Shown here: piece after piece, positions 11,946 to 38,119 of the stretch
How the letters are laid out: the number at the start of each line of letters is the position of its first letter
How positions within the stretch are numbered: position 1 is the first letter of the stretch
NCBI GenBank assembly: GCA_951406725.2
Contig: OX597815.1
Location: 54,684,001-54,748,000 of the forward strand
Length of the DNA: 64,000 nucleotides
Reading direction: 5' to 3'
DNA from: Octopus vulgaris
Taxonomy: Eukaryota
The notes under the pieces: generated by a model
Databases searched by the model: none
The model's input: only the letters and a program-made list of their open reading frames with translations
Told to the model about the DNA's origin: nothing
Position numbers and translations under genes: made by a program

Positions 11946-12730
11946 TATATATTATATATATATATATATATATATATATATTAGAGAAATGGATACACAC
12001 GCACAAGATGTTAAGTAACATGTGCATTAGTCACCATTTTCCAAAACATATCTCACTTCTCCTTGGAATTATTACCCATGTATGTGTGGTTACTAACATC
12101 TTAAAGTGCTTGTGTGACATTTTGCTACCCAGGTAACTACTTCTCCGGGTCTTTCCTTGAAAATTAAACACGCACACACACACACATATATATATATAGA
12201 GAGAGAGAGAGAGAGATAGAGAAAGAAACAGAGAGGGAGAGTAACGATATAGATCATACTGCACTCACATACACACACAAGCATACATAATGCATATATT
12301 TATGTATGTATATGTTTGCATATATATATGTATGTATATGTATGCATATATATATATATATATATATATATATATATATATATATATATATACAAAGTAA
12401 GATAGGGGTTATGAAAGTAACCCACTATGGGATATCAATTATCCAATATACTGCTGGTAAAGTACCCAAATACTAATTACATAAATGCTTATAATTGCAA
12501 TGCAATTAATTAAATTATTGTATTGAATGGGTGAAGGTAAAAAATATTTTACCGTAAATTCATAATACAAATAAGAAAATGGAGAAACAAATTCATTTCG
12601 ATCATCAACTTACGGATATTACAATTTCACATTATTTATTAATTATACAAATAGGAACATGAAAATCGGGCAAAACTATATACATCAATATGCAAATTAA
12701 TAATAAAATAAAATAATACTAATAAACTGC

Positions 12731-12862
12731 TCCCTACAGTTGTTTCAGCCTATGGTCGAGAGACAATCCAACTTAAATTGCCTATAGATGCCATTGTAAT
12801 ATAGTCCTAGGCATTAAAGATTATATTTGTCTGTTTAAATAACCAAAGGCCTCGTCAGAGGA
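12731..12862 (-). ncRNA. Type I hammerhead ribozyme with long stem II insertion
   Basis: Minus strand: UCCU-CUGACGA-GGCCUUUGGU...ACCAUAGGCU-GAAAC-AACU-GUA-GGGA; canonical core, stems I and II pair with G-U. Confidence 0.75.
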
Positions 12863-13162
12863 TATACATAACTATAAAATTATAATAATAATATTGATAT
12901 ATAAAAAACATGCTTCCCATACTATCCAATAAAAACAAGAAAATAAATAGTAAGACAAATATTCAAAATACATATATATAAACAAATATATACATATATA
13001 TATATATATATATATATATATAATTAAAAATGAGGGTGTCTAAAAGACACCAACATGCCGAAACAGCAGTCGAAACTCTGACTATAAAACCACGTTAAGT
13101 GTTCATATCGCACCATGAGGTAAAGCGGAGGGACAAAACATACAAGCAAAAATTATTGAATA

Positions 13163-13222
13163 ATTCAAGATCCAAGGATTTCTGGTTCTGCTTTAGATAA
13201 GCTTTACCGTCATCAATTGAAT
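13163..13222 (-). ncRNA. Type I hammerhead variant (UUGAUGA core), copy 1
   Basis: AUUCAA-UUGAUGA-CGGU...ACCA-GAAAU-CCUUGG-AUC-UUGAAU on the minus strand. Confidence 0.65.
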
Positions 13223-13644
13223 ATATCAAGGGTACATAAATACAGATATATATATGCACAGCAAACGATATACTTACATATACGAGCGTCGTACATACAT
13301 ACATATGCACGTATGGACACAGCCAGTCTGAATCGCCCGCCAAATCACCGCATAAGTACGATATGGTTAAAATAAGCACCGCAGTGAATATAATAACGAA
13401 TTATATAAATTTATATATGAGGATAATATCGATATTTAAGTGTCGAAATTATCAAGTGGCCAGCATGAAATAAATACCTTACAAAGGTAAAAAAAATTTT
13501 AACAATTAAAAATGAGGGTGTCTAAAAGACACCAACATGCCGAAATAGCAGTCGAAACTCTGACTATAAAACCACGTTAAGTGTTCATATCGCACCATGA
13601 GGTAAAGCGGAGGGACAAAACATGCAAGCAAAAATTATTGAATA

Positions 13645-13704
13645 ATTCAAGATCCAAGGATTTCTGGTTCTGCTTTAGATAAGCTTTACCGTCATCAATT
13701 GAAT
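13645..13704 (-). ncRNA. Type I hammerhead variant (UUGAUGA core), copy 2
   Basis: Same motif exactly 482 bp from copy 1. Confidence 0.65.
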
Positions 13705-14071
13705 ATATCAAGGGTACATAAATACAGATATATATATGCACAGCAAACGATGTACTTACATATACGAGCGTCGTACATACATACATATGCACGTATGGAC
13801 ACAGCCAGTCTGAAAGGTATTTCTTTCATGCTGGCCACTTGATAATTTCGACACTTAAATATCGATATTATCCTCATATATAAATTTATATAATTCGTTA
13901 TTATATTCACTGCGGTGCTTATTTTAACCATATCGTACTTATGCGGTGATTTGGCGGGCGATTCAGACTGGCTGTGTCCATACGTGCATATGTATGTATG
14001 TACGACGCTCGTATATGTAAGTATATCGTTTGCTGTGCATATATATATCTGTATTTATGTACCCTTGATAT

Positions 14072-14131
14072 ATTCAATTGATGACGGTAAAGCTTACCTA
14101 AAGCAGAACCAGAAATCCTTGGATCTTGAAT
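14072..14131 (+). ncRNA. Type I hammerhead variant (UUGAUGA core), inverted copy 3
   Basis: Stem I ATTCAA/TTGAAT (6 bp), TTGATGA, stem II GGT/ACC with a C-A mismatch at its base, GAAA, stem III ATCC-TT-GGAT, predicted cleavage after AUC at 14125. Confidence 0.65.
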
Positions 14132-14493
14132 TATTCAATAATTTTTGCTTGTATGTTTTGTCCCTCCGCTTTACCTCATGGTGCGATATGAACACTTAAC
14201 GTGGTTTTATAGTCAGAGTTTCGACTGCTATTTCGGCATGTTGGTGTCTTTTAGACACCCTCATTTTTAATTGTTAAAAATTTTTTTACCTTTGTAAGAT
14301 ATTTCTTTCATGCTGGCCACTTGATAATTTCGACACTTAAATATCGATATTATCCTCATATATAAATTATATATATATATATATATATATATATATATAT
14401 AATATTAATTCGAGACAAAACCACTGTTTTGCAAAACAAACAAGGAAAGACTTAATCAATACATAAAATTTTTTAATATAAAGAAATAAACCG

Positions 14494-14536
14494 CCACTAC
14501 AATCGTTTCATGTCTTCAATGACATTCGTCAGGTGG
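14494..14536 (-). ncRNA. Minimal type I hammerhead ribozyme (left arm)
   Basis: Exact reverse complement of 14554-14596. Confidence 0.88.
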
Positions 14537-35147: not shown

Positions 35148-35689
35148 TTTGTTATTGTTCCAAGATGGATAAAACAAGCCCTGGGAACGGTTTACTTGAC
35201 TGTGTTCGGTCCACAACAGGCGTTACCTTAACTCTACAGTGAAAATAAAGAAAAGTCAATTCATTTGTAAGTGAATAGATAAATGTAACAGCTCACTTCA
35301 GAGAAGACATACATTAAGGACAGGAAAACATACATAAATATATACTTGAATACATACACAAATTTTCAATTATCAAAAAGTGATGTCTAAAATTGGATAA
35401 AATGAGGAATGATTGATTTCAATAATTAGTACTCTTTAACTGAATGGTGCGTAAATATATCAAAAGGGAGCCACACCCGCAGATGGTGAAGAAGTTAGAG
35501 AATATTTTAAGCTTTTTTTTTTTTTTTTTAGTCGAGTTTCGTTATTTTCATATGACATTTTTCCATAATCTTTTTTCTTCTGACCGAAATATTTTAAATC
35601 TTTGTTTCATTTTTTTATCTTTCTGATGTATAAGGATGGATATTGACGTGTATGAGTCTATTTTCAAATGTAATTCTGAAGAAGAGTGA

Positions 35690-36088
35690 AGGCGCAGGAG
35701 TGGCTCTGTGGTTCCGGGTTCAGTCCCACTGCGTGGCACTTTGGGCAAGTATCTTCTACTATAGCCTCGGGCCGACCAAAGCCTTGTGAGTGGATTTGGT
35801 AGACGGAAATTGAAAGAAGCCCGTCTTATATATGCATATATATATATGTATGTGTGTGTCTATGTTTGTGTGTCTGTGCTTGTCCCCCCACCCCAACATC
35901 GCTTGACAACCGATGCTGGTGTGTTTAAGTCCCCGTAGATTAGCGGTTCGGCAATAAGAGACCGATAGAATAAGAACTAGGCTTACAAAGAATAAGTCCT
36001 GGGGTTGATTTGGTCGACTAAATGCGGTGCTCCAGCATGGCCGCAGTCAAATGACTGAAACAAGTAAATGAGTAAAAGAGTAAAGAGT
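35690..36088 (+). mobile_element. SINE family A copy with a deletion between the A and B boxes
   Basis: aggcgcaggagtggctctgtgg joined directly to ttccgggttcagtccc; ends aaacaagtaaatgagtaaaagagt. Confidence 0.9.
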
Positions 36089-36959
36089 CAAATTTACCTT
36101 ATCTTGGATTACTCATTTTGCCCCGATCAAATTTGTCTTTTATATGCTCAAAGAGAACGGCGATAATTTTCTGAAATGATGTTCAGATTATGTTATAATG
36201 CTTTTAGAGCATTTAGGGAAGACCATTTAACTGGATAATATAGTCTTTGTAAGATAGTGAACATTTATAAATAACTCTCTTTTTTTTCTTTTTTCTGGAA
36301 GTCAAAAATGTAGTAAAACCTTTTCATTGTTCCCACACACACACTCACACCATCAGTTTACTATACAAAAGTAATATAGTTACTTGGTGATCTAGACTAA
36401 AACTCTATTGGTCATATGTCTGCTGAAGTAAGCTACGCGTCGCGTTAAGTAACAACATTATCAATACCAACCCCACTAATATTTATTTAATGTATCTATG
36501 AGCCAATGAGGGAACCGCTTATCAAACAAACCTTTTTCTAAACTCCTAAAGGACATGTAATGTATTCCTAGATACACTATGTATGAAAATAGGATGGGAC
36601 GCTTACCTATAGAATGTTTGTTCATAATTATGTCCTATTAACTTTGACTTGGATGAGAAGACAAAAGCATAGAAATACTTTTCAAGGGAAGTAAATCAAA
36701 ATATATATATTTAAAAGTTACTTCCCATGGACCACATGTTGCTGAACGCGTGCAGTTGCTAAATTTCCTTTATCTTTCCCTTCTTACAGGCATGAGACTG
36801 CTGCTAAGCTGAGATTTATTTGTAAGTCTGATACGTATTCTGTCGGGTTCTTATACCGAACCGCAAACATATAAGGACATAAACAAAGCAACACCGGTTG
36901 TCAAGTGGGGAAGAAGGGTAAAGACAAATCCACACACCCATACATATAAAATATATATT

Positions 36960-37300
36960 TACTCTTTTACTCCTTTACTTGTTTCAGTCATTTGACTGTG
37001 GCCATGCTGGAGCACCGCCTTTTAGTCGAGCAAATCGACCCCAGGACTTATTCTTTGTAAGCCTAGTACTTATTCTATCGGTCTCTTTTGCCGAACCGCT
37101 AAGTTACGGAGACGTAAACACAGACACACACATATATATACATATATACGACGGTCTTCTTTCAGTTTCCGTCTGCCAAATCCACTCACAAGGCTTTGGT
37201 CGGCCCGAGGCTATAGTAGAAGACACTTGCCCAGTGGGACTGAACCCAGAACCATGTGGTTGGTAAGCAAGCTACTTACCACACAGCTACTCCTACGCCT
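36960..37300 (-). mobile_element. SINE family A copy
   Basis: High identity to the other copies, with internal deletions. Confidence 0.9.
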
Positions 37301-37312
37301 ATATGTACATAT

Positions 37313-37436
37313 ATAACTTATAAAATAAGGGTTAAAGAAAAAATCTAATGCCAAATATGGCGAAAATAGACAAAATTGTCTATTTTCTGCATATTTGGCA
37401 TTAGAATTTTTATTTTGCCCTTATTTAATAAGTTAT
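37313..37436. repeat. Hairpin palindrome with about 60-bp arms and a minimal loop, between TA tracts
   Basis: ataacttataaaataaggg...gaaaatagacaa folds onto ttgtctattttc...cccttatttaataagttat. Confidence 0.8.
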
Positions 37437-37771
37437 TTATAAATTTAACCATTAAAGGTATTTTTTAATATGCTGGCTATTGATAAAAAAATTTTTCGAA
37501 AAAAAAATTTATCCTACATTAGTATGTACATATATATATATATATATATATATATATATATATATATATATATATCTTTCCTGAGCGTCAAATAATACTT
37601 TAATTGTTCCACGTTGCTGTGTTTTTTTCTGTGTTTTCTTGTTTGGATTAACTATATGTATGTATATATATATATATATATATATATATATATATATATA
37701 TATATTACGGAGATGTACTTGCATAGCAAGTGACCTGATCTGAGATCGTGTGCTGAAACAAAAGCAATTGC

Positions 37772-38033
37772 ATTGCAGCGTGAAAGGTATTTATAAGCTA
37801 TTCAAAATCACACAAAAACAATTAGATTCACTTCAACATTTAAATTTAATTTACCAAAATATTTTCATTGCTTTCACTGACAAAATTCTGTGCAGCACGG
37901 AACTTTGTCATTGAACAGGTTGCGGTCTCAGAGCAACGAAAATATTTTGGCAAATTAAATTGAAATGTTGAAGTGAATCTAATTGTTTTTGTGTGTTATT
38001 TAAATAGCTTATAAACAACTTCCACGCTGCAAT
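37772..38033. mobile_element. Palindromic mini-PLE with about 100-bp arms and a degenerate hammerhead-like motif at 37904-37954 (+)
   Basis: 37772-37873 pairs with 37930-38033; UUUGUCA-UUGAACA-gGUUGC...GCAAC-GAAAAUAUUU-UGGCAAA keeps HHR geometry but the core is non-canonical. Confidence 0.7.
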
Positions 38034-38119
38034 CGTTCATGTGTGCGTGCGTGCGTGCGTGCGTGCGTGTGTGTATGTGTGCTATATGCATCTATGTGCA
38101 TTTAAACGTGAATACACAT

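Follow-up and report, generated by a model that had tools for sequence, protein, structure and literature searches.

It is already known that Penelope-like elements (PLEs) carry hammerhead ribozymes (HHRs) in their ends, that a single genome can hold many HHR families, that Octopus has a Hydra PLE which targets (TA)n and bears an HHR, and that retrozymes derive from PLEs. Hydra-1_Obim of Octopus bimaculoides combines a preference for (TA)n with a listed HHR, and the Hydra cores in file S2 of the same work all read CUGANGA (PMC8557442). Metazoan genomes have been described as harbouring many HHR families each, with solo and opposite-strand motifs and a U3-A8 core variant (PMC4209133). Retrozymes and their PLE origin have likewise been described, the available text of these sources naming no cephalopod for the non-LTR (long terminal repeat) type (PMC7229834; bioRxiv 10.64898/2026.07.22.740005), and the main text of an Octopus repeat annotation has zero occurrences of 'ribozyme' (PMC13282606). 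Here we analysed 64 kb of Octopus vulgaris contig OX597815.1 (the window), in which an initial annotation had noted about 12 hammerhead motifs of about nine sequence types, nearly all next to (TA)n. With a probability of about 0.8, we conclude that these motifs are type I HHR folds in the terminal repeats of many PLE families, either coding or short and non-coding, the latter likely mobilised in trans by a PLE reverse transcriptase (RT) and endonuclease (EN). The system is real and abundant, and largely of a type already described; what appears to be new is the presence in this lineage of non-autonomous families with PLE insertion anatomy, together with fixed variant cores.

A strict type I descriptor (core CUGANGA...GAAA...UH, stems I-III in type I order) found two motifs only in the window, 14532(-) and 14558(+), and the hammerhead family was absent from the 145 Rfam matches at E<=10, which are microRNA models driven by microsatellites. 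Using a relaxed descriptor that tolerates a loop II as long as 130 nt, a single mismatch in the core, and either a mismatch or a bulge at the base of stem II (10.1-11.1), nine folds scored at least 8, all within 12340-38050, against a mean of 0.17 and a maximum of 2 in 30 block-wise dinucleotide shuffles; the descriptor was loosened stepwise after the sites were known, which makes this figure favourable, and a blind 600-kb sample serves as the independent control. Admitting U3-A8 and G3-C8 cores added 37911(+), and a minimal-HHR pattern, with no match in four shuffles of the 600-kb sample, added 30660(+). Minimal HHRs of metazoan PLEs are reportedly the subject of Lünse 2017. The following cores fit a type I descriptor, several with one core variant.

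12858(-), 13216(-), 13698(-), 14078(+), 14532(-), 14558(+): HHR cores passing the relaxed or strict descriptor
18273(-), 21604(+), 22347(-), 30660(+), 37911(+): HHR cores passing the relaxed or minimal descriptor

These account for 11 of the 12 sites originally listed. At the 12th, with its core at 34136(-), part of stem II is deleted in the window copy, and the core of its family (S) is intact elsewhere. The count of nine sequence types also proved right; they occur in at least nine repeat families, four types being found in coding PLEs and four in non-coding elements, while one (family Q) is placed in neither. Folding energy was rejected as a discriminator, since it is unremarkable for HHR fragments (z of -1.7 to +1.4 in 10 fragments). 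All eight motifs that were checked have a stem III that is palindromic or close to it, and this feature, together with extra nucleotides at 10.1/11.1, agrees with the published Hydra list. As in the minimal HHRs of metazoan PLEs, the window motifs fall into many families, occur solo or as opposite pairs, have a bulge at 9/10.1, include the U3-A8 variant and are predicted to cleave as dimers (PMC4209133); a loop II of 50-105 nt, by which they differ, is common here. U3-A8 itself has been named as the natural 3-8 covariation (PMC3088659). Folds with U3-A8 cores, including L235:8794(-), contributed 8 motif contexts at a score of at least 10 among 64, some possibly by chance.

The blind sample was drawn from contigs C1-C29 as sixty stretches of 10 kb placed at round coordinates, and held 30 folds at a score of at least 9 compared with 5, 4, 4 and 5 in four shuffles. 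These folds form 19 clusters, two of which are common to the window, and (TA)5 lies within 300 nt downstream of 22 of them against a 20% background. The net density of ~42 folds per Mb extrapolates to some 10^5 in the genome, a figure good only to an order of magnitude, since several matches are arms of one insertion. That the window might be an exceptional hotspot was considered and rejected: at a score of at least 9 it has 7 folds in 64 kb against 30 in 600 kb, or about twice the sample density, and at a score of at least 11 it falls below the sample (1 against 24). None of the 30 sample folds has Hydra or Poseidon-like coding sequence in strand within 4 kb upstream, a result that does not separate truncation from non-autonomy.

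For the families themselves, each module was searched in the whole assembly (2.8 Gb, 227 contigs), with only the 40 best candidates scored per DNA query and the 10-30 best loci examined per search, which biases the picture to complete, similar copies; first-look candidate numbers are loose and are not copy numbers. Against a (TA)4 background of 5-17%, depending on the size of the interval, (TA)4 lies near the 3' end in 20/20 young Hydra, 25/25 P, 18/20 L, 17/20 T, 15/20 Q and 18/20 S loci, and is rare in V (4/30) and in the old Hydra family H (4/20). (TA)n targeting therefore holds for six of the eight families tested; the proximity of nearly all motifs to (TA)n stands within the window and does not extend to V and H as families.

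Three HHR types occupy the 3' ends of Hydra-clade elements, and the fourth coding type the 5' repeat of a Poseidon-like element.

22264..24348, - strand: 5'-truncated, frame-broken copy of a putative Hydra-clade PLE of a young family; HHR core CCGAAGA at 22347
12392..12971, - strand: 3' module of family L; core CUGACGA at 12858, 105-nt stem/loop II
14806..17857, - strand: body of family L, forming a non-coding 3' region that contains (TA)n runs; segments colinear at other loci
17857..18062, + strand: inverted, tail-less arm of family L
18104..18549, - strand: family H, 3' end of an old Hydra PLE; core CCGAAGA at 18273, 59-nt stem/loop II
30600..32521, + strand: decayed PLE of Penelope/Poseidon-like type, its RT and GIY-YIG frames broken

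The first of these had been recognised as an RT/GIY-YIG PLE in the initial annotation, and ends in (TA)n. Its family fits the Hydra clade, because its motif set and 2.59-kb unit agree with the published definition (PMC8557442). The unit measures 2.58-2.59 kb in seven of nine tandem spacings and has a single open reading frame with RT and C-terminal GIY-YIG in less than 3 kb; these domains were read from motifs, with Pfam giving zero domain matches on a 460-aa piece of the window PLE frames. RWK, DKT, CxCx5C, CxxC and CxH are present in the 717-aa frame, and GxKF/Y is absent. A search with the 3' end gave 726 candidates (best 40 at 98-99% identity), and the protein search gave 92 matches at 96-100%, 90 of them stop-free and several in 717-aa open frames. 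The protein query (22563-23942, -) also returned 36,006 loose first-look candidates with many intact 717-aa frames. On these loose counts, a large young Hydra-clade expansion in the genome is suggested; the 600-kb sample contained no copy of the 3' end. The 3' ends adjoin (TA)n at all 20 loci, with an optional ~70-nt tail that matches the start of the next tandem unit. The family thus resembles Hydra-1_Obim and its clade in the C-terminal GIY-YIG, the RWK/DKT/CxCx5C motifs, the length below 3 kb, the (TA)n target, the 3' HHR and the palindromic stem III, with a cut predicted here after UU, and differs from the listed Hydra cores in having CCGA where those have CUGANGA (PMC8557442). The non-canonical core (U4C) reads CCGA(A/U)GA in 66/68 copies, and a sister family (L248) has CUGAAGA.

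Family L has the core CUGAYGA in 15/17 parsed copies, with a predicted cut after GUA near 12735. A Hydra linker/endonuclease relic lies at 17610-17878, and at locus L112 the family continues upstream into a Hydra RT+EN relic. We had considered L as a 574-nt non-coding element and rejected this on account of that continuation; the family reads instead as a 5'-truncated Hydra PLE end whose 3' region spans ~3.3 kb. Families T and P are embedded in a (TA)n run of L, making 12392-18062 one nested structure, so the view that the flanks of the modules are otherwise unrelated was partly wrong. Copies of family H are 72-88% identical, and 7 of 19 other loci show a Hydra C-terminal coding relic directly upstream in strand, by which H, too, reads as the 5'-truncated end of a coding Hydra PLE. 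The element at 30600..32521, whose Poseidon-like label we assign provisionally from motif likeness, has a minimal HHR (core 30660) in its 5' repeat, and its 3' end adjoins (TA)n at 32522. A short Hydra RT relic is present at 18699-18906(+), upstream of a 198-aa low-complexity frame.

The remaining families differ from these in anatomy.

13022..14375, two copies on -, one on +: family T array, 484-nt non-coding tandem monomer with ~99-nt tail
33944..34165, - strand: fragment of family S, ~585-nt circularly permuted non-coding monomer; stem II deletion, core 34136
14402..14775, both strands: family P hairpin insertion, ~260-nt unit with inverted arm lacking the ~78-nt tail
37705..38038, both strands: family V hairpin insertion, ~210-nt unit the size of a short interspersed nuclear element (SINE); window copy U3, core 37911(+)
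21338..21810, both strands: family Q; core CUGAAGA at 21604(+), U.U at 10.1-11.1, inverted arm 21338-21459

Family T, with 1856 first-look candidates at 97-99% identity, continues in tandem at 20/20 loci, has an inverted copy at 14/20, and bears a tail of ~99 nt identical to its own start. Its window cores (13216, 13698 and 14078) read UUGAUGA, with U3 facing G8, as do 45/46 copies, a departure from the canonical core. Coding tests, with the window's Hydra and Poseidon-like proteins as the only queries, gave no PLE match in the T unit, whose longest stop-free frame is 101 aa. In four contig sets, three of them only guessed to be RNA, T sequence covered 30, 30, 30 and 14 of 30 bins, which demonstrates neither transcription nor cleavage, RNA ends or circles; the head-to-tail joint appears in contigs of three of the four runs, and the same joint exists in genomic tandems. 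One contig (run X1) over 13131-13266 has seven T>C differences at a depth of 3.1, equivalent to A>G on the ribozyme strand, for which RNA editing, divergence of the copy or an error may account. Family S retains the canonical CUGANGA in 16/18 parsed copies, and its tail runs into its own upstream sequence. Family P carries the two canonical HHRs, 14532(-) and 14558(+); one arm gave 921 first-look candidates, with the best 40 at 99-100%. A single leader is common to 20/25 P loci (full-length in 13), and two loci are truncated. Because hairpin centres vary between loci, we infer that the inversion arises anew at insertion. Tail-less inverted arms, which are a hallmark of PLEs, an optional tail and tandem copies are found across P, V, T and S, and all four act as non-coding units of small size whose insertion anatomy is that of PLEs. 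Family Q extends at least 1.45 kb upstream, with no PLE coding detected there in other loci; a Hydra relic that adjoins a single Q locus in the opposite orientation (L134/L193) could not be linked to the family.

It might be argued that every module is the 5'-truncated end of an autonomous PLE and that self-propagating non-coding families do not exist. This is true for L, whose first-look candidates number 3320 for the 3' end and 81 for the body, and for H, and solo and opposite-strand HHRs are read as truncated PLEs in PMC4209133. T and S, however, are circularly permuted, so that the sequence upstream is their own tail, and in P and V the 5' end is nearly fixed across unrelated loci; as a general account, truncation is thus improbable. 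The description of the modules as small and non-coding accordingly applies to T, S, P and V and fails for L and H, which are truncated coding Hydra elements, and for the coding Poseidon-like element at 30660.

Another reading makes T and S circular-RNA retrozymes inserted by some other retroelement. Both share with non-LTR retrozymes the non-coding tandem monomer with a type I HHR, the strong self-pairing (z of -5.0 for the T monomer and -6.2 for a natural S copy of 535 nt) and the kinship to PLE terminal repeats (PMC7229834), where the mobiliser of retrozymes is left open. They are longer than the ~170-400-nt invertebrate circular RNAs of retrozymes (PMC7229834); T also lacks an obvious canonical core or loop contacts, and both occur, unlike retrozymes, as short dispersed tandem or inverted insertions in (TA)n. 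Their (TA)n ends, optional tails and inverted arms agree with the Hydra element of the same genome, which makes mobilisation by an unrelated retroelement very improbable. Rod-like retrozyme circles are likewise unsupported for the P and V units (z of -1.3 to +0.8). We retain PLE mobilisation as the likely route for the short families, which in their non-coding nature, pseudo-LTRs, head-to-tail arrangement and microsatellite targets resemble the non-autonomous Chlamys PLEs (MRC1). The latter belong to a different clade, are mostly without HHRs and have 3' ends that match autonomous partners (PMC8557442), whereas no partner was matched for the families here.

Family V, with 2084 first-look candidates, is the most divergent in its core. 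G3 and C8 occur in 28/28 parsed loci (2/30 could not be parsed), with GUGAACA in 24; the count comes from a query that itself bears G3:C8, and a search with the U3 window copy also gave GUGAACA as the commonest core. The other core positions are in register with a 7-bp stem I, a 5-bp stem II with a 5' bulge and a palindromic stem III, and 97% of cells are paired compared to 27-51% when the structure is slid along the alignment. Such a hammerhead would be predicted to cut after UU. The 5' leader pattern matched in 17/30 loci; upstream of it, nothing is shared among the 30 except the family's own inverted arm (8/30), and about nine show, on reading by eye, direct repeats of 8-14 nt close to the two ends. 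V could instead be an unrelated SINE or miniature inverted-repeat transposable element (MITE) that resembles a hammerhead by chance, as its non-canonical core, its (TA)n in only 4/30 loci, unit folding no better than shuffles (z of -0.8 to +0.8), a missing covariation signal and the lack of any relative found with a C3-G8 core would allow. The register of the core and stems, the pairing contrast, the tail-less inverted arms typical of PLEs, and the rarity of such folds (scores of at least 10 only 2-4 times per shuffled 600 kb) speak for a genuine HHR, and make chance resemblance unlikely. Tentatively, and at somewhat under even odds, we propose that V is a ~210-nt element spread by a PLE to thousands of sites, with a natural G3:C8 core that cleaves as a dimer, and that it forms part of some ~10^5 uncatalogued hammerheads of many families, among which CCGA is recurrent and is fixed in the young Hydra element.

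To our knowledge, the G3:C8 core is otherwise known only as an engineered mutant. In the available text of PMC3884650 it is mentioned only as a tested variant, and that of PMC4209133 has no mention of a G3:C8 family among metazoan PLE minimal HHRs. Exact spellings returned no natural multi-copy G3:C8 family from open-licence literature text, nor did the literature searched yield any young Hydra family in which CCGA (U4C) is the fixed core. A cephalopod HHR catalogue was also not found in open-licence text, and Repbase, Dfam or supplements may list such families; novelty in cephalopods is limited in any case by the publication of Hydra-1_Obim with (TA)n and HHR (PMC8557442). CCGA recurs in this genome, in young Hydra at 22347(-) and in both arms of an L-related insertion (L264:8309/8390), and was seen in one divergent T-like contig (run X4, window 13215-13216). 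From the CpG-decay pattern in nine parsed copies, it is possibly ancestral in family H. A CCGA core is said to cleave in a viroid (Ambrós and Flores 1998).

The folds might also be inherited elements that serve structure or protein binding and catalyse little if at all, whose variant cores persist as cleavage is unneeded, a reading compatible with the transposon anatomy. Variant cores are indeed fixed in young families (T and young Hydra), minimal PLE HHRs are of low activity (PMC4209133), and HHR mutants of a PLE still insert in vitro (PMC11167929). On the other hand, in V the 3-8 pair has changed in a compensatory way, U3-A8 cores are also present, stems differ wholly between families with pairing kept, and C3G/G8C partly restored cleavage in the PLE HHR (PMC11167929). 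We regard a purely structural role as possible, if doubtful.

How the elements may spread can be outlined from published PLE work and the copies themselves. Hydra endonuclease would nick (TA)n, and RT would begin at an internal RNA site, leaving the optional 70-170-nt tail. A PLE protein has been found to nick AT-rich DNA and to start reverse transcription inside the RNA, which would explain such tails (PMC11167929). Truncation at the 5' end or inversion could then produce short hairpin modules, and repeated insertion into one (TA)n run the nested cluster at 12.4-18.5 kb. Insertion of T, S and P into (TA)n, and probably that of Q, would depend on Hydra-type proteins. We postulate that V uses another, perhaps Poseidon-type, partner because it shows short target duplications in AT-rich, non-microsatellite DNA. 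Tandem transcripts are predicted to be cut as dimers, given the palindromic stem III. Inserted copies retain the whole motif and 25-40 nt upstream, so the HHR cut does not set their ends.

Several observations weigh against this interpretation. First, no autonomous partner for T, S, P, Q or V was found among the best-scoring loci fetched, and the specific proposal that the element at 22264-24348 mobilises the non-coding families was not upheld, none being matched to an autonomous partner; with 40 best candidates scored, rare longer parents would escape. Second, 3/25 P loci have a different, AT-rich upstream sequence that may be such a longer parent. This second upstream type was seen on the P ribozyme end at L138, L148, L153 and L192, as a candidate parent 3' region, with no coding match in the 10 kb fetched. 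Third, covariation within V is not above shuffles (171/500), stem covariation being limited to compensatory pairs seen by eye between related families (L vs L264, Q vs L274). Lastly, the one PLE examined in vitro cleaved at its HHR only with the protein present and could insert without that cleavage (PMC11167929), and eight of nine Xenopus retrozymes were without cleavage (bioRxiv 10.64898/2026.07.22.740005). The assignment of the motifs to PLE-type type I HHRs is nevertheless supported.

Further hammerhead-like features were noted in the window.

21160..21225, + strand: degenerate HHR-like fold, two core mismatches, 7-bp stem II
33799..33867, - strand: recognisable 3' half of an HHR in a further repeat family

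No relative of the degenerate fold was present among the fetched loci. Of three half motifs reported earlier, that at 17890 falls in the inverted arm of the 12858 family (L), that at 33855 belongs to another repeat, on the - strand, and that at 1230 is without a relative among fetched loci. At the last begins a 205-nt inverted repeat (1239-1443 and 1505-1709), interrupted by a SINE-like repeat; the repeat search of the window was swamped by microsatellites, yet yielded inverted arms. One abundant SINE-like repeat has several copies (1690-2100, 20750-21120, 35690-36090 and 36960-37300) and is unrelated to the hammerhead modules. Frames at 47249-48385 and 61773-63600 resemble, by their motifs, decayed endonuclease/RT pieces of long interspersed nuclear elements.

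For the role of the hammerhead in PLE transposition, this genome offers natural material. Its young Hydra element keeps intact frames, its short non-coding templates measure 210-585 nt and its cores vary (G3:C8, U4C and U3.G8), which together form a compact test of whether cleavage is relevant, and the same set could show what the PLE protein recognises. Part of the unclassified SINE/MITE fraction in cephalopod annotations may prove to be PLE-derived.

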